From assembly GCA_034434815.1 (NCBI GenBank), contig DAOTYO010000005.1:13118-77117 (forward strand): a stretch of DNA of 64,000 nucleotides, written 5' to 3'. The number at the start of each line of letters is the position of its first letter. Position 1 is the stretch's first letter. The notes beneath the pieces were generated by a model that worked only from the letters and a program-made list of their open reading frames with translations, searched no databases and was not told where the DNA came from. The stretch is from Dehalococcoidia bacterium. GTDB lineage: Bacteria > Chloroflexota > Dehalococcoidia > SZUA-161 > SpSt-899. The position numbers and the translations under genes were made by a program. Shown here in pieces: positions 5,159-64,000 of this stretch.

Positions 5159-5258
5159 AGCTCGAAACCCTTCGTGCTTCCTCCTTGGAAAACTTGGCCG
5201 TCCGGGAGATCCTTCCCCGGGCGGCCAAGTCGTTTCTGCAGAGAGGAGATAAAAGCGC

Positions 5259-6539
5259 CTACGGTTCGAGTACGGCCACGTGCCATCCGGGATCAACCCG
5301 GAAGAGATCCTTTCGCTGACCATCCGCGCGCTGAATGCCATAGCAATCGCCGCCGTAGCGCTTGGTTTCCGTGAAACTGTATCGTTGCACCCCATCCACC
5401 ACGAACGTGAAATTCCGGGCCGCATCATAGAGCGCTGCGGGACTGAAATTCTCCGCCCCTACGTTCTCCACAGCCTTCTTCACGATCTCCAACATCATGA
5501 CAAAGTTCTCCACCGCCAGATATCCGCAACCATTCCTTCTGATCTCGGTGGCTTTGCCGGGATGATTCTCCTCGAGAAGCTTGCGTGTGAGGTCAACGAT
5601 CGTTCCCTCTTCGTTCCACCACTGAGAGAGGCGGATGAAGAGCATCCCATCAGCTTCGTCCCAGAGATCAGCGGAATCGAACATTCCGGTGAAAGCCGCA
5701 TGGACATCGGTCCCAAGAAATGTCCCCTTATCCGTGAGCTCGCGGAATTCCCGAATGAAGATATTGGGGGGACAGGGCGCATAAACATAGTCGCAGCCTT
5801 TGAGGCCCTGAACCTCCGTATCCCACCGGAAGTTGAAATTCGTGAGATACCCCGTCACCCACTGGAACTGATCCGGATGGGCCTTGGCATACTTCTGGGC
5901 CGCTTCGAACCAAGCGTTGGAATAGGCCTCGGTCCATGCCGCTCCCCCAATCTTGGCCGGCCCCTTGGTATGATAGTCCCAATCGTTCTTCGCGATCCAA
6001 TCGAGAAGGGTGTAAGCCTCGTACTGGGGTAGTGTACCGAGGGTGAATACATATCCGGGCGGAGTCAAATCCTCCATGCCGGCCGCCGCGGTAAACAGTG
6101 GCATGCGGTCACTGTTCACACGTCCCTTGAGAGGCCTCACGGCGAGGGTCACAGGGGTCCAAATGATATCCGCGCCCTTCTCGATGAGCCACTCGTATCC
6201 CGGAATGGCTTTGGCCGGATCATACTGCGTATCATACGAAAGGACCTTCAGCCTCACCCCCGGGATGAGCTCGTTATCGTTGTAATACTTGACCACATCT
6301 TCGAGAGCCATGTTGATAACTTCCATGGCGGTGGAAGCGACGCCGGTGACATCGGTGATATTGCCGATAATGAGGGTGACCTTCTCATCCGACGCCGATG
6401 GCGCTCCCTGTGAATCAGCGGAGACCGGGCGGGCATTCACCTCCGTCTCCGTTTTTTCCGATCCCCCACAGCCGAAGCCAACGACCACCGCCATAACCAG
6501 AAACATCGCCACCAAAACACTTGCTATCCGCGTCCCCAT
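5259..6539 (-). CDS. ABC transporter substrate-binding lipoprotein (branched-chain amino acid / LivK-type periplasmic binding protein family)
   Basis: Lipoprotein signal MGTRIASVLVAMFLVMAVVVGFGC at the start chosen after a GGAGG RBS; type-I periplasmic binding fold composition; the track ORF has a 35-aa upstream extension. Confidence 0.7.
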   Translation of the reverse strand: MGTRIASVLVAMFLVMAVVVGFGCGGSEKTETEVNARPVSADSQGAPSASDEKVTLIIGNITDVTGVASTAMEVINMALEDVVKYYNDNELIPGVRLKVLSYDTQYDPAKAIPGYEWLIEKGADIIWTPVTLAVRPLKGRVNSDRMPLFTAAAGMEDLTPPGYVFTLGTLPQYEAYTLLDWIAKNDWDYHTKGPAKIGGAAWTEAYSNAWFEAAQKYAKAHPDQFQWVTGYLTNFNFRWDTEVQGLKGCDYVYAPCPPNIFIREFRELTDKGTFLGTDVHAAFTGMFDSADLWDEADGMLFIRLSQWWNEEGTIVDLTRKLLEENHPGKATEIRRNGCGYLAVENFVMMLEIVKKAVENVGAENFSPAALYDAARNFTFVVDGVQRYSFTETKRYGGDCYGIQRADGQRKDLFRVDPGWHVAVLEP

Positions 6540-6666
6540 CTTCTGCCTCCGTCTTTTTGTGATGATAGAATACGAACTGTGATCAGGGGAAAGAAAGATA
6601 CGAGAGGTTAGGGGGATTATAAAAAAAGAAAGGACAAATGTCAAGCACGGAAATTTCGTCTATAAC

Positions 6667-6881
6667 AGCGATTGAAGAGGAGTGCGCAGAGATGACATCT
6701 CTCGGGGGGATTGGGGATGCTCTCCAAAAACACCCTGTGGGCGGGTAGGGGGAGCGGAGAAGCCTGAGGACATGGAAGATCCCGTGGCAAGGCCCGGAAT
6801 GAGATCATCATGGGCATTCCCCCTGAGGGTGAAGACTGCAAAGCGGAATCGCTGTTTTGGGGGCCACTCCAATCCTTGACA
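6667..6881 (+). repeat. copy A of novel ~215 bp interspersed element (AGCGATTGAAGAAG ... GGGGGTGTCCCCC ... CACCCTGAGGGTG ... GAATCGCT ... TTGACA)
   Basis: Direct sequence similarity to six other loci in this window; ends in a TTGACA -35 box 17 bp upstream of TAAAGT, 24 nt before the cobO ATG. Confidence 0.8.
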
Positions 6882-6928
6882 CCAAACATGGCCGATGATA
6901 AAGTAAGGCAGCGGCGGGCACAATCGGC

Positions 6929-7459
6929 ATGACGAAAGATCACGTGGGACTCGTCCAAGTCCTGACCGGCAATGGAAGAGGCAAAACTACCGCCGCTCTC
7001 GGGACCGTTCTCCGGGCTGTGGGACAGGGGCTTCATGTTCACATCATTCACTTCATGAAAGGCACATATCCTTACGGCGAGCAAAAGGCCCTCGCGCTCT
7101 TGCCCAATGTGACGGTATCGCGTTTTGGAAAACTGGATTTCGTCGACCCTCGTAACATCAAGGAAGAGGAACGCGAAGAGGCCCGCAAAGCCCTCGCGGC
7201 GAGCAAGGAAGCCATCCACAGCGGGGCCTACGATATGGTAGTGCTCGATGAAATCAACATTGCCTCCGCTTGGGGATTGATCCCGGTCGAAGAGGTGCTC
7301 GAGCTGATCAAAACAAAGCCGGAAGGGGTGGAACTCATTTTGACCGGCCGGTATGCCGATCGGAGGCTCATCGAGGCGGCCGATCTCGTCACCGAAATGG
7401 TCGAGATCAAACACCCTTACCAGAAAGGCATCAAGGCCCGCAAGGGATTCGAATACTGA
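6929..7459 (+). CDS. cobO: cob(I)yrinic acid a,c-diamide adenosyltransferase (ATP:corrinoid adenosyltransferase, CobO/BtuR family)
   Basis: P-loop GNGRGKTTAALG and the VLDEIN motif of the CobA/CobO/BtuR family; 176 aa. Confidence 0.85.
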   Translation: MTKDHVGLVQVLTGNGRGKTTAALGTVLRAVGQGLHVHIIHFMKGTYPYGEQKALALLPNVTVSRFGKLDFVDPRNIKEEEREEARKALAASKEAIHSGAYDMVVLDEINIASAWGLIPVEEVLELIKTKPEGVELILTGRYADRRLIEAADLVTEMVEIKHPYQKGIKARKGFEY

Positions 7460-11598: not shown

Positions 11599-11682
11599 TG
11601 GCCGTCACCCATCCGGTCCATGCTTCCACCTTCTCTCAATCCTCCCACATTTTCCTTCTGGATTCCCAAAGGGACGAATGGA

Positions 11683-11899
11683 GAAAAGAGTGCACAAGAC
11701 ACCTCTCTCTCGGGGGATTGAGGGTGTCCCCCAAGAAAACCCTTTGGGCGGGTGGGTGGAATCGGAGAAGCCGGATCGCTCGTGGGGCGTGCGGGGGAAT
11801 TCCGGTACAAAGTCCGGATGAGGCGTCAACGGTTATTCACCCGAGGGTAAAGGCTGCAAAGCTGAATCGCTCTTTTTGGCGATTTCTTGTTCCTTGACA
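11683..11899 (+). repeat. copy B of interspersed element (5-prime end diverged)
   Basis: Shares the core CTCTCGGGGGATTGAGGGTGTCCCCCAAGAAAACCCTTTGGGCGGGTGGGTGG...GAATTCCGG...GCTGAATCGCT; ends in TTGACA 58 bp upstream of livG. Confidence 0.75.
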
Positions 11900-21764: not shown

Positions 21765-21883
21765 GGCGATCTTCCGGGTGCCTCCACACTCCGCCGAAGA
21801 ACCGTCAAAAGCCTTTCCCGATGGTCTCTCATAAGTATAATCCAAAGAGGGCGATTTTTACAAAAGGCCGCCGGGCCGTAAAG

Positions 21884-21977
21884 AGCGATTGAAGAAGAGA
21901 GTGCAAAAGACGCCTCTCTCGGGGTGTCCCCCAAGAAAATCCTTTGGACGGGTGGGTGGGAGCGAAGAAGCCGGGGG
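21884..21977 (+). repeat. copy C of interspersed element, 3-prime truncated (~95 bp), immediately upstream of tRNA-Thr
   Basis: AGCGATTGAAGAAGAGAGTGCAAAAGACGCCTCTCTCGGGGTGTCCCCCAAGAAAATCCTTTGGACGGGTGGGTGGGAGCGAAGAAGCC matches the 5-prime half of copies A, D, E and G. Confidence 0.75.
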
Positions 21978-22032: not shown

Positions 22033-22107
22033 GCCAACGTAGCTCAGTGGTAGAGCAGCGGTTTCGTAAACCGCCGGTCGTCGGTTCAAATCCGACCGTT
22101 GGCTCCA
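22033..22107 (+). tRNA. tRNA-Thr (anticodon CGU), CCA encoded
   Basis: Cloverleaf: acceptor GCCAACG/CGTTGGC, D-arm AGCTCAGTGGTAGAGC, anticodon loop TTCGTAA, T-arm GGTTCAAATCC, discriminator T + CCA; TATAAT at 22014-22019 just upstream. Confidence 0.8.
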
Positions 22108-26312: not shown

Positions 26313-26351
26313 CATTTCCCGTCGCGATACCCAACGCCGTGCGACCCTCTG

Positions 26352-26560
26352 AAGAAGGGCGATTCCGCTTTGGAGCCTTCACCCTCAGGGGGAATGGGCT
26401 TGATCACCTCACTGCGGACCTTGCCCCGGAATTCCCCCACACCCCATGAGCGATCCGGCTTCTCCGATCCCACCCACCCAAAAGGTTTTATGGGGGGACA
26501 CCCCCAACCCCCGGCTTAAGAGGCGCCTTGGCACGCGCTTCTTCAATCGCTGTTTTTGGG
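26352..26560 (-). repeat. copy D of interspersed element (full length, inverted orientation)
   Basis: Reverse complement reads CCCAAAAACAGCGATTGAAGAAGCGCGTGCCAAGGCGCCTCTTAAGCCGGGGGTTGGGGGTGTCCCCCC...GAATTCCGGGGCAAGG...CCCTGAGGGTGAAGGCTCCAAAGCGGAATCGCC. Confidence 0.8.
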
Positions 26561-26611
26561 TCTTCTGCATGAATCCCACGCCGGCGAACTTTGTGCTACA
26601 ATACACTCGTT

Positions 26612-28273
26612 ATGTCTGAGAGGATTCTCGTTGCCGTAGCTTGGCCTTACGCCAACGGCCCGCTGCATCTCGGGCACATCGCCGGAGCCTATCTCCCCGC
26701 CGATATCTTCGCCCGATATCACCGCCTCCGCGGAAACGAAGTCTTGATGGTCTCCGGATCCGATATGCACGGCACGCCCATCACCATCAGTGCCGAACGG
26801 GAAAAGACCACCCCGGAGGAAGTGGCCTTCCGCAACCATCGCGCCTTCATGGAAGCTTGGGGAAAGATGGGGATCTCCTTCGATCTCTACACCTCCACCC
26901 ATACCCCCAATCACACGGCGGTGGTGCACGATATCTTTCTGACGCTTCTCCGGAAAGGCTATCTCTACAAGGATTCCATGCCGAGCGCCTTCTGTCCTCA
27001 CTGCAACCGCTTTCTTCCCGATCGGTACACGGAAGGGGAATGCCCCCATTGCCATGCGCCGGCCGCACGGGGAGATCAGTGCGATGAATGCGGGAAAACA
27101 TTGAGCCCGGGAGAACTCATCAACTGGAGATGCGTTCTGTGCGGCGGCAAGCCCGAGATGCGGACAACCGAGCACTACTATTTGAAGCTCTCGGCCTTCA
27201 GCGATCGGCTCGAAGCATGGGCCAGAGCTCAGACCCACTGGAAGCCCAACGTCTCGAGCTTCACCATGCGGTACATCAAGGAGGGCCTCCGCGATCGGGC
27301 CATCACCCGGGACCTCGAATGGGGCATCCCCGTGCCCGCGGAAGGGTTCGAAAGCAAACGCATTTACGTTTGGTTCGAAGCGGTGATCGGGTATCTTTCA
27401 GCCACAAAGGAATGGGCCGAGAGGAAAGGCGATCCTGAAGCATGGCGCCCCTTCTGGCGGCCGGATGCACGATCGTATTATTTCATCGGTAAGGATAACA
27501 TCCCGTTCCATACGCTCATCTGGCCGGCCATTCTGATGGGGTATGATCCGAACCTGCGCCTCCCCTATGATGTGCCCGCCAACGAGCACTTGACCCTCGA
27601 AGGCAAGCAATTCTCCAAGAGCCGCCGCTGGGCCGTATGGCTGCCCGATTATCTTGAGCGATACGATCCCGACCCCCTGCGGTACGTGCTCTCCGTGAAC
27701 ATGCCGGAGACGGGAGATACCGATTTCTCGTGGAGGGAGTTCGTCCGGCGCAACAACGATGAGCTCGTGGCGACCTATGGGAATCTCGTGAACCGCGTTC
27801 TCAAACTCACCCACCGCAACTTCGGAGGGGGGGTCCCGCCGCTCGGCGAACCGGATTCACGGGATCAAGCGCTCCTTTCCATGGCTAGAGAAACGCTCCA
27901 GCGCGTCGGCGAATCGCTGGAGATCTGCCGGTTCAAGGAGGGCATCAAATCCGCCTTTTCCCTGGCACAGGAGGCCAACCGATACCTCGATGACAAGGCC
28001 CCGTGGAAGCGGATCAAGGAAGATCGAGAAGGGGCCGCTACGTCACTGGGAGTGGCCATGGGAGTACTGGCCTGTTTGAAAACGGCGCTCTATCCCTTCT
28101 TGCCCTTCAGCTCGGAGAAATTGCACCGAATGCTGGGCTTTCCCGGAACGGTTCAGGGGGGCGGCTGGGATTTCCCCTTCCCTCTCACGGGACAGAAGCT
28201 TTCCCCTCCGGAACCGCTCTTTGTCAAGCTCGAAGAGGATATCATCGCCGCGGAAACCGCCAAACTCGGGTGA
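26612..28273 (+). CDS. metG: methionine--tRNA ligase
   Basis: HIGH motif (PYANGPLHLGHIAG), zinc knuckles CPHCN...CPHCH...CDECG...CVLCG, KMSKS-type FSKSRRW; start trimmed to MSERILV. Confidence 0.9.
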   Translation: MSERILVAVAWPYANGPLHLGHIAGAYLPADIFARYHRLRGNEVLMVSGSDMHGTPITISAEREKTTPEEVAFRNHRAFMEAWGKMGISFDLYTSTHTPNHTAVVHDIFLTLLRKGYLYKDSMPSAFCPHCNRFLPDRYTEGECPHCHAPAARGDQCDECGKTLSPGELINWRCVLCGGKPEMRTTEHYYLKLSAFSDRLEAWARAQTHWKPNVSSFTMRYIKEGLRDRAITRDLEWGIPVPAEGFESKRIYVWFEAVIGYLSATKEWAERKGDPEAWRPFWRPDARSYYFIGKDNIPFHTLIWPAILMGYDPNLRLPYDVPANEHLTLEGKQFSKSRRWAVWLPDYLERYDPDPLRYVLSVNMPETGDTDFSWREFVRRNNDELVATYGNLVNRVLKLTHRNFGGGVPPLGEPDSRDQALLSMARETLQRVGESLEICRFKEGIKSAFSLAQEANRYLDDKAPWKRIKEDREGAATSLGVAMGVLACLKTALYPFLPFSSEKLHRMLGFPGTVQGGGWDFPFPLTGQKLSPPEPLFVKLEEDIIAAETAKLG

Positions 28274-38949: not shown

Positions 38950-38985
38950 CCGGATCGCCCCCCTTCTCATTTCCTACCCAAAAAC

Positions 38986-39184
38986 AGCGATTGAAGAAGC
39001 ACGTGCCAAGACGCCTCTTAAGCCGGGGGATTGGGGGTGTCCCCCAGAAAACCCTTTGGGCGGGGTGGGGGGATCGGAGAAGCCCGATCGCACATGGGGT
39101 GAGGGGGGAATTCCGGGGCAAGGTTCACGGCGATGCGATCAAAGTCATTCACCCTGAGGGTGAAGGCTCGAAAGCGGAATCGCT
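38986..39184 (+). repeat. copy E of interspersed element (full length)
   Basis: AGCGATTGAAGAAGCACGTGCCAAGACGCCTCTTAAGCCGGGGGATTGGGGGTGTCCCCCAGAAAACCCTTTGGGCGGGG...GAATTCCGGGGCAAGG...CACCCTGAGGGTGAAGGCTCGAAAGCGGAATCGCT; followed by hairpin CCGGAAAGcCTTTCCGG and an extended -10 TGATATACT before aroQ. Confidence 0.8.
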
Positions 39185-39258
39185 GCTTTCGGACCCGGAA
39201 AGCCTTTCCGGAGTTTCCCTTTCTTGTGATATACTAAAGCAGCAAACCGAGGGCAGCG

Positions 39259-57744: not shown

Positions 57745-57807
57745 ACATACCTCCTTGAGAATCTCTCCGGATTTTCGGCATCCCTATCCCATTTCCGTCA
57801 AAACCCG

Positions 57808-57927
57808 AAAAGAGCGATCCCGCTTTGGGGCCTTCACCTCAGAGCGAGTGCCTGTGATCACCTCACTCCGGACCTTACCCCCCAATCCCCCCGTGGCGGT
57901 GTCTCGGCACACGATTTCTCGATCGCC
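57808..57927 (-). repeat. copy F of interspersed element (internal ~80 bp deletion, inverted orientation)
   Basis: Reverse complement reads GGCGATCGAGAAATCGTGTGCCGAGACACCGCCACGGGGGGATTGGGGGG / TAAGGTCCGGAGTGAGGTGATCA...CTCTGAGGTGAAGGCCCCAAAGCGGGATCGCT, then TTTTGACG. Confidence 0.7.
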
Positions 57928-57947
57928 GTTCCGGGGTCAAAACACAA

Positions 57948-62223: not shown

Positions 62224-62353
62224 TATAGGGCGGGGAGCCTCAGGGGTCAACCGATTTCTCCGTGCCGAAAACCAACCGCCGGAGCCCCCAAGGCCTTCCT
62301 ACGAACCGCCGCGAACTTCCGAGACACGCCTTTGCGATTTCCCAACCCAGAAC

Positions 62354-62580
62354 GGCGATCGAAGAAGCCCATGCCCGGACGCCTCTTTAGCCGGGGGTTT
62401 GGGGGTGCCCCCCAAGAAACCCTTTGGGCGGGCGGGTGGGATCGAAGAAGCCGGATCGTTCATGGGGTGCGGGAAAATCCCGGCGCAAGGTCCGGAACGA
62501 GGCGATCACGCTCACTCACCCTGAGAGCGAAGGCTCCAAAAGCTGAATTCGCCTTTTTGGGGTCTTAACCGGCCCTTGAC
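62354..62580 (+). repeat. copy G of interspersed element (full length) ending in a TTGACT -35 box
   Basis: GGCGATCGAAGAAGCCCATGCCCGGACGCCTCTTTAGCCGGGGGTTTGGGGGTGCCCCCCAAGAAACCCTTTGGGCGGGCGGGTGGGATCGAAGAAGCC...GCAAGGTCCGG...CACCCTGAGAGCGAAGGCTCCAAAAGCTGAATTCGCC...CCCTTGACT. Confidence 0.8.
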
Positions 62581-62605
62581 TTGTGTCGACAGAGAGTGGT
62601 ATATT
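62575..62605 (+). promoter_or_regulatory. sigma70-like promoter (TTGACT -35 contributed by repeat copy G; TGgTATATT extended -10)
   Basis: TTGACTtgtgtcgacagagagTGgTATATT; followed by an AT-rich ~70 nt leader and an AAGGGGG RBS before the ATG at 62674. Confidence 0.55.
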
Positions 62606-62673: not shown

Positions 62674-64000
62674 TGAAGAAAGGTTTAGTTCGTCTCAGTA
62701 TGCAAGCGCTTCTGGGGATGGGGCTCGCCGTCCTTCTGCTCGTGCCCACTCAGGCGCTGGCCGGAGACTGGCCCCAATTCCACGGGGATCCCCAGCACAC
62801 CGGGTATTCCGCCTCTCCCGCTCCCCACACCGCACACCTCCTCTGGGAGAGCCCCGAGATCGGTGCCGTGGATGCCTCCTCACTGGCGATCGCCGAAGGC
62901 AAGGTGTTCGTCAATTGCGGCACAAGTCTGGTATGCTTGGACGAGACATCGGGATCCGTCTTGTGGTCTCAGCCCATCGTCGGCGGAAACTCTTGGGGCT
63001 CCTGGGCAGGTCCAGCGTATGACGACGGCCGGGTATTCATCTCGGGAAGCATGGTCTATGCCTTCAATGCCGCCGATGGTGCTCCGCTCTGGACCTATGA
63101 TCTCCCTCACGATGCCTGCAACGGCGGCCCGCTGGCCGTGGCCGGCCGGGTGTACGCCAGCGATTGGGACGGCCATCATTACTACTGCCTCGATGCGGCC
63201 ACCGGGGCATTGCTGTGGTCATTCGATGTGGGCTCCGGTTACGCGCAGGGGGTGCCCGCTTTCTACGACGATGGCGCCGAAGGTAGAATTTTTCTCACGA
63301 GCTGGAGTTCGCCCGGCGGCCATGTTTGGTGCCTGAACGCCGCCACCGGCGACCTCATTTGGCATGGGGTAACCCCCCTCGATACCTGTGGCTCGCCCAC
63401 GATCGCCGAGGGCAAGGTATGGGTGACCACCTATAACTTCTCCGGTTTCGGAAGCCTTTTGGCCTTCGATATCAACGACCTCGGCGGCGATGGGATAGGC
63501 GATATCGTCTGGGGACCCATTTCCATCGAGAGGACGAATTCCACCCCCGCCTATTGGAACGGCAAGATCTACGTCTCCGGCGGATGCTATGGCTTCTCCA
63601 ACGAAGGGGAACGAACCTACTGCATCGACATCGCCACCGAGTCCATCCTCTGGCAAACGCCGGTCGAGTGGGGCGTGGGCAACTGGACATGCTCTGTAGC
63701 GGTCGCGGATGGACTCGTGTTTTCGGGGAAGCCCGCCCCGGGCGGTGCAATGGCCTTCGATTATGAGGCCATCTATGCCCTCGACGCCGTCACCGGCGCC
63801 GAGATTTGGCATTACGATCACGGCGGTGCCTCGCCCTCGGTCGCCAACGGCCGGGTATTCACCGTGGCCGAGGGGAAAATATGGGCTTTTCAGGATGCCA
63901 CTGCGCCCGCGTGGGATGTGAACGGAGACGGGAGCGTAAACGTGCTCGATATGGTTCAGGTGGGGCTCCACTTCGGGGAATCGGGCACGCCGGGATGGAT
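62674..64000 (+). CDS. secreted PQQ-like beta-propeller repeat protein with C-terminal dockerin-like repeat (3-prime partial at window end)
   Basis: Signal peptide MKKGLVRLSMQALLGMGLAVLLLVPTQALA; repeated G-x-V/L-x-A-x-D-x-x-T-G-x-x-x-W propeller blades (CLDETSGSVLW, AFNAADGAPLW, CLDAATGALLW, CLNAATGDLIW, ALDAVTGAEIW); DVNGDGSVNVLDMVQV dockerin-type Ca-binding repeat. The ORF runs off the window, so it is absent from the ORF track. Confidence 0.7.

Follow-up and report, generated by a model that had tools for sequence, protein, structure and literature searches.

Does a matched pair of base changes at the two ends of a repeated element show that these ends are held in pairing by selection? 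The question was raised by the first-pass annotation of the 64-kb window analysed here (the window being the whole stretch of DNA at its full length). The annotation noted that copies A, D and E of a dispersed repeat start with AGCGATT, that A and E end in AATCGCT and D in AATCGCC, and that copy G has GGCGA at its 5' end and TCGCC at its 3' end. All of these bases were confirmed. The double change in copy G preserves pairing and was proposed to reflect a pairing constraint, either in an RNA with a closing helix like the P1 stem of a riboswitch or in the terminal inverted repeats of a transposon. After a wider comparison of copies, the element is very probably a MITE of ~217 bp, non-coding and dispersed intergenically in one uncultured Chloroflexota lineage. 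The paired substitution in copy G is no evidence for a functional RNA or for a pairing constraint, and the locus is no candidate riboswitch or small RNA.

Seven copies (A-G) of the ~217-nt repeat are present in the window, on both strands and amid unrelated housekeeping genes, at a density of about one per 9 kb (Table 1). The G+C content of the element is 53-62%. The interval that was flagged, 62354-62553, is the inner portion of copy G, and the motifs AGCGATT and AATCGCT are likewise the inner part of 16-nt terminal inverted repeats. The end-to-end complementarity that had been described is therefore real but longer than described, with 13 pairs over ~16 nt (CCCAAAAnAGCGATT ... AATCGCTnTTTTnGGG). 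In copy G, the 3' arm has an extra T (GAATTCGCC) and the 5' arm a T-to-C change (GGCGATC), so that only five of the seven quoted pairs are able to form. Copy B, which the annotation leaves unmentioned, has two broken pairs and one wobble in this helix (Table 1).

Table 1. Copies of the element, promoter-like sites beside them and an adjacent tRNA gene in the window, with examples of target-site duplications at collected loci.
Feature	Position	Strand	Remarks
MITE copy A	6658-6863	+	nhmmer and covariance-model match; 5' tip degenerate; AGCGATT at 6667-6673, AATCGCT at 6847-6853
MITE copy B	11665-11880	+	terminal helix with two broken pairs and one wobble (GACGAAT versus AATCGCT); tips with 4-nt direct repeat GATT
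MITE copy C	21878-21974	+	5' half alone
tRNA-Thr(CGU)	22033-22107		begins ~58 nt past the end of copy C
MITE copy D	26349-26560	-	3' arm AATCGCC uncompensated; 3' tip degenerate; AGCGATT at 26551-26545, AATCGCC at 26364-26358
MITE copy E	38977-39192	+	nhmmer and covariance-model match; AGCGATT at 38986-38992, AATCGCT at 39178-39184
MITE copy F	57800-57935	-	internally deleted derivative
MITE copy G, full length	62346-62562	+	nhmmer and covariance-model matches spanning the whole model
Copy G 5' terminal inverted repeat, CCCAGAACGGCGATC	62346-62360	+	GGCGA at 62354-62358
Copy G 3' terminal inverted repeat, AATTCGCCTTTTTGGGG	62546-62562	+	TCGCC at 62549-62553
Promoter-like site TTGACA-17-TATAAT	6616-6644	-	copy A left end, outward, in register
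Promoter-like site TTGACA-17-TAAAGT, TG-extended	6876-6904	+	copy A right end; upstream of the corrinoid adenosyltransferase gene at 6929
metG promoter-like site, TG-extended TACAAT	26573-26602	+	in register with copy D left end
Promoter-like site TTGACT-18-TATATT, TG-extended	62576-62605	+	13 nt past copy G tip; faces the gene at 62674
Target-site duplication, L065			CCCATGA (CCCATGA / CCC...CGG / CCCATGA)
Target-site duplication, L093			ACCTTGC
Target-site duplication, L119			GGTACAC
Target-site duplication, L102			GATAGCC
Target-site duplication, L038			TTTGT
Target-site duplication, L079			TCTCA

Further copies were collected from metagenomes. A scan with a degenerate core pattern, which fixed ~20 nt of the element interior, returned at least 114 loci, and a profile search of these loci gave ~60 full copies among the matches listed. 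Two alignments were used. Alignment A2 (MAFFT) contains 51 distinct full copies. Alignment A3 is structure-aware, leans toward the structure and comprises the 73 matches of covariance model R1, of which 66 are distinct; 7 of the distinct copies are from the window and the rest are metagenomic. Among the matches listed, these 73 came from ~476 kb of metagenome DNA of the same lineage, and ~47 independent sites with non-homologous flanks were counted among the metagenome loci listed. The mean pairwise identity among copies is 77% and the divergence from the consensus is ~15%; the copies are fairly old.

The metagenome copies among the matches listed come from four JGI samples (Ga0078972, Ga0123519, Ga0207433 and JGI24721J44947), in which the organism is the same or very close. 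The best named matches among MetRS homologues are MAGs labelled Chloroflexi or Dehalococcoidia, at no more than 86% identity. By these sequences, the host is an uncultured, Dehalococcoidia-like member of the Chloroflexota. In species-representative genomes, a 21-nt degenerate core pattern found two stretches, which gave only weak nhmmer matches of 23-25 nt; neither is a family member. The host is apparently absent from the species representatives, or its copies mismatch the core pattern. Two scans of viral contigs, by inverted-repeat pattern and by core pattern respectively, returned 38 loci and no family member. The copies sampled stem from what is essentially a single lineage, and chimeric assembly may affect some interiors, so the power to detect weak covariation is limited.

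One pair of loci illustrates the second point. L098 (9966-10203) and L110 (7489-7721) represent the same insertion site in two samples with identical 100-nt flanks, and their interiors show differences at numerous positions as well as indels. Either chimeric short-read assembly or sequence exchange between copies accounts for this difference. The terminal arms lie within one read length of unique DNA. Independent Logan assemblies (L004-L006 at position 1; L169 at position 1) stop inside the element or just outside it, with the break point inside the element ~170 nt from the 3' tip. The repeat breaks short-read assemblies of the host organism, which is useful to know when these genomes are annotated and binned.

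How often is the terminal pair of copy G compensated in other copies? On A2, this pair is A-T in 36 copies, G-C in 3, A-C in 8, G-T in 2 and another combination in 2. On the structure-fitted A3, with its 66 distinct copies, it is A-U in 38, G-C in 3, G-U in 3 and unpaired in 15. The variant TCGCC at the 3' end marks a subfamily; it occurs at several different sites, mostly together with a 5' A, as an A.C mismatch. An imperfect repeat was evidently tolerated at this position, and the seemingly compensatory change in copy G is no evidence for transposon inverted repeats either. Two of the three G-C copies, copy G and L091, share the 5'-end variant CGGCGnTCG along with 3' TCGCC. Among the matches listed, L091 is tied with L038 and L086 as the closest to copy G (80% identity), the latter two being A-T copies. 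Because copy G and L091 share these variants and L091 is among the closest relatives, the three G-C copies are probably not independent events. We infer that the double change in copy G (A to G and T to C) consists of ordinary transitions or of markers of a subfamily and was not selected as compensation. It is real as sequence, and its compensatory signal does not exceed what chance and common ancestry produce. The internal hairpins had also been cited as varying in the loop while keeping their stems. The hairpin GGGGGtgtCCCCC, which reads GGGGGTGCCCCCC in copy G, is nearly invariant, and its closing pair is G-C in 40 copies, A-U in 2 and unpaired in 5. It provides evidence neither way.

The terminal helix as a whole was compared with two controls, in which columns were shuffled or the pairing partner was slid. 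Its cells are paired in 89-90% of cases (51-66 copies), against 30-59% with the partner slid, an excess far too large for the inverted repeat itself to be due to chance. Compensation within it is another matter. On A2, the 13-pair helix had 89.6% paired cells against 89.2% after shuffling (reached by 90 of 500 shuffles) and 6 double-change cells against 4.1 (reached by 100 of 500). On A3, the corresponding values were 88.8% against 87.9% (2 of 500) and 10 against 5.9 (16 of 500). The excess of double changes on A3 is meaningless because 8-14 double-change cells were also obtained with the partner slid by 1-3 columns. The cells of the helix on A3 comprise 630 consensus pairs, 9 compensated pairs, 48 changes of G-U type, 47 of A-C type and 40 others. 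One-sided changes in the 13-bp helix thus outnumber compensated ones by 135 to 9, or 15 to 1. This is the outcome that the first-pass annotation, in proposing the wider alignment, had itself named as refuting its reading. The near equality of G-U and A-C changes shows no preference for the wobble pairs that could be tolerated in an RNA from either strand; in the internal helices, G-U changes numbered 111 and A-C changes 153. In a mutual-information scan over all column pairs, the top pairs were indel and lineage markers of non-Watson-Crick type, and the terminal pair was outside the top 40.

Could the element nevertheless be a structured RNA, riboswitch-like or a family of small RNA genes, whose closing helix is under selection and in which copy G is truly compensatory? 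Its 5' and 3' ends are complementary, as in a riboswitch P1 stem, and RNAalifold on the trimmed alignment predicted the terminal helix along with internal hairpins. Single-copy folds of the + strand were slightly stabler than shuffles (z-scores of -1.75 and -1.22), and the whole structure stood above column shuffles on the structure-fitted alignment. However, the terminal helix was predicted equally on the opposite strand, where the single-copy fold was no better than shuffles (z-score of +0.40), and RNAalifold on the untrimmed alignment gave 9 pairs only with zero covariation. Unlike in a riboswitch P1 stem, covariation and strand asymmetry are absent. The slid controls equalled the real pairing in double changes, the top covarying columns were non-Watson-Crick, G-U equalled A-C, and 15 unpaired copies stood against 3 compensated ones at the terminal pair of copy G. 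A search of the whole window against Rfam at the gathering score found tRNA-Thr alone and left the element unmatched. With copies G and E at E-values up to 10, the Rfam matches were at chance level (E between 1.9 and 7). The copies are located beside unrelated genes and in either orientation, and their place is not in 5' UTRs but upstream of promoters. Seven copies per 64 kb with target duplications is the behaviour of a transposon. The shuffle and slide controls, the equality of G-U and A-C changes and the position upstream of promoters leave a constraint on pairing at the RNA level, or a closing helix of the riboswitch kind, unsupported. The structured-RNA explanation has been largely refuted, and we regard it as highly improbable.

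The alternative raised alongside it, that the ends are the terminal inverted repeats of a transposon, proved right, as target-site duplications flank the repeats. Of 47 independent copies, 21 have an exact direct repeat of 5 nt or more immediately at the tips; random re-pairing of left and right flanks would give 1.9 (examples in Table 1). The apparent length of the duplication is 5-8 nt depending on where the tip is placed (5 with CCC/GGG tips, 7 with CC/GG tips), and no single combination of tip and length fits every copy. Beyond the tips, the flanks are non-homologous between copies. Many 1-nt indels separate the copies and no reading frame is kept, which indicates that the element is non-coding; its ~217 nt are well within the size of a MITE, below about 600 bp. 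It is dispersed in both orientations over many unrelated intergenic sites, and half copies and internally deleted copies occur as derivatives. MITEs are recognized by their size, terminal inverted repeats, direct repeats that wane with age, intergenic sites and stable predicted folds (PMC10969869). Identification as a MITE is further in line with the subfamily structure, the assembly breaks within the element, the lack of an Rfam match at the gathering score or at E up to 10, and the balance of 135 one-sided to 9 compensated changes with 48 G-U to 47 A-C, which is that of a helix in neutral decay.

Several observations fit a MITE less well. On the structure-fitted alignment the terminal helix is slightly above shuffles, and the apparent duplication length varies. 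The search for a parent transposase came up empty in ~480 kb of host DNA and in the genome and viral scans: no repeats of 0.5-3.5 kb were present in the host DNA, and inverted-repeat pairs 0.3-6 kb apart in the collected loci were only the ends of separate copies, with no candidate for an enclosed gene. L123, the sole orthologous locus without the element (81% nucleotide identity), has unrelated sequence in place of copy D, and its divergence is too great for an exact empty site to be read from it. A fragment lies at L124 2975-3052, in the diverged relative GCA_016866095.1. The strain-level contigs retrieved by the genes beside copies A, B, E and G all carry the element or end within it. From the anatomy of the element, a DDE-type transposase encoded elsewhere would bind both inverted repeats, cut the element out or copy it, and insert it at a staggered cut that gives rise to the target duplication. 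The copies would then decay roughly neutrally after insertion. Their arms would still pair through descent from a symmetric protein-binding site and not through maintenance of a helix.

Selection on end pairing could in principle come from a different kind of mobility. REP/REPIN-like or IS200/IS605-derived elements are moved as single-stranded DNA hairpins by HUH (Y1) transposases, and like REPs with their RAYT transposases, the present element is an abundant extragenic palindromic repeat with ends that are able to pair on both strands. A REP is a hairpin of 20-40 bp. The present element, in contrast, is ~217 nt long with true terminal inverted repeats, and neither 20-40-nt nor subterminal hairpins. 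IS200/IS605 and REP/RAYT systems are not known to make target-site duplications, which are present here. Mismatches in the helix are not avoided, and neither a GTAG/CGTC tag nor a RAYT gene was seen in the collected loci. We give such an origin only a slight chance.

How does the element compare with known MITEs? The Correia elements of Neisseria (CREE/NEMIS) have 26-bp repeats and a TA duplication. They are found immediately upstream of genes, and their subtypes encode strong promoters themselves (PMC10969869). The present element resembles them as a MITE closely tied to the promoters of neighbouring genes. It is unlike them in that the complete -35/-10 pairs are outside both the element and the target duplication, in non-homologous host DNA. 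Like QMITE2 of Coxiella burnetii, ERIC and RUP (PMC10969869), the element is small and non-coding, with terminal inverted repeats, fading direct repeats, many dispersed intergenic copies, a stable predicted fold and truncated derivatives. It differs from these bacterial MITEs in being G+C-rich rather than AT-rich, in its uncultured Chloroflexota host, in having flanking promoters at a fixed register and in having no shown sequence relation to any named family. As a MITE family of an uncultured Chloroflexota lineage, it has not been described before.

The promoters beside the element were examined by reading 95 distinct element ends outward, with index 0 at the first base of (G/C)AATCGCT. Among the right ends, 17 of 47 are followed by a full sigma-70-type -35/-10 pair whose -35 starts at index 28-33, as are 13 of the 48 left ends; such pairs are very few at other offsets. 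Of 44 occurrences of TTG[AC]C, 19 are at index 29-32 (p = 1e-13), and of 105 occurrences of TAnnnT, 42 are at index 52-56 (p = 3e-23). The -35 starts ~13 nt past the tip, at either end and in non-homologous flanks. The target duplication sits between the tip and the -35 and ends 6-8 nt short of the latter. The promoters are therefore no part of the mobile unit, and the duplicated target spans roughly -49 to -42. A promoter-bearing MITE of the Correia kind was rejected, as the hexamers are at least 13 nt beyond the tip and past the target duplication. The fixed register suggests promoter-registered insertion or retention.

What could produce such a register? A narrow window of tolerated intergenic DNA seems insufficient because copies B, E and G had 36-96 nt of unoccupied intergenic DNA on their opposite side. 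The register is about equally frequent in copies with intact duplications (11 of 42 ends) and in older ones (19 of 52 ends). In-register promoters were present at 40% of ends facing a gene start and at 23% of ends facing a gene end, by a crude ORF rule that is too noisy in this G+C-rich DNA for the difference to be decisive. The metG promoter (TTTGTGnTACAAT) is conserved in the relatives L123 and L124, both of which are without the element at this site, so that at least in this case the promoter predates the insertion. The MITE may insert or survive only in a fixed register to sigma-70-type promoters, at either end and in either orientation; we put this forward tentatively, as a possibility with somewhat less than even prospects. 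If true, the transposase would choose its target by reading either the -35 box or RNA polymerase bound at the promoter; alternatively, the T-tract ends would be an upstream promoter module. A review of prokaryotic MITEs covers intergenic preference and the internal promoters of Correia elements and describes no promoter-registered insertion of this precision (PMC10969869). If the register reflects target choice, it would be a case of promoter-guided transposon integration in bacteria, and in an uncultured organism the element would serve as a natural marker of where promoters lie.

A related explanation is that the host now retains the element, although it originated as a MITE, as a module upstream of promoters, with T-tract/GGG ends that act as an upstream element, insulator or terminator for the outward promoters on both sides. 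This would account for the fixed register from either tip, with the p-values given above, and for the fixation of copies across samples; the same copies are found at orthologous sites in every strain-level contig retrieved. A promoter is present at only about one third of ends, however, and the duplications have decayed in more than half of the copies. Constraint on the interior is no greater than age and subfamily structure explain, given the mean pairwise identity, and the conservation of the metG promoter in element-free relatives also speaks against this explanation. The T-tract is offset by 4-5 nt from the T-run of the E. coli UP element, whose position we take to be that of the Estrem et al. 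consensus, and the UP-element reading of the T-tract was dropped. We consider retention by the host unlikely, though far less so than a structured RNA.

Other features of the element and its surroundings were also recorded. The element + strand has a GC skew of +0.23. The family consensus contains GGGCGGGTGGGTGGG, a G3-N1 x4 G-quadruplex-type motif on the G-rich strand, and the interior of copy G has the G-quadruplex-type motif GGGCGGGCGGGTGGG at 62426-62440 (+). Of 51 copies, 23 have the G3-N1 x4 motif exactly and 34 have a tight G4 motif; the retrieval pattern overlaps part of the motif, so that both counts are biased. Near the 3' end of the element, copy E has a perfect 17-bp palindrome, TTCACCCTGAGGGTGAA (39148-39164), with counterparts at equivalent positions elsewhere; TCACCC-N2-3-GGGTGA occurs in 18 of 51 copies. 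In sequence, the palindrome looks like a dimeric protein-binding site or a hairpin.

Two neighbouring loci deserve mention. At metG, the TG-extended TACAAT box ends ~10 nt before an ATG at 26612 (region 26597-26614), and this arrangement is kept in L123 and L124. The gene looks leaderless or nearly so, and the listed TTG start at 26591 is probably wrong. The intergenic region between metG and a polyprenyl synthase gene in L123, an 88%-identical relative, contains another direct repeat, TTCGCT(C/T)CGCTCAGAATGACATT, in two copies (5221-5485). Read by eye, the gene downstream of copy G (62674-64000) has a signal-peptide-like N-terminus and a dockerin-like DVNGDGSVNVLD motif near the end of the window; it appears to encode a secreted repeat protein.
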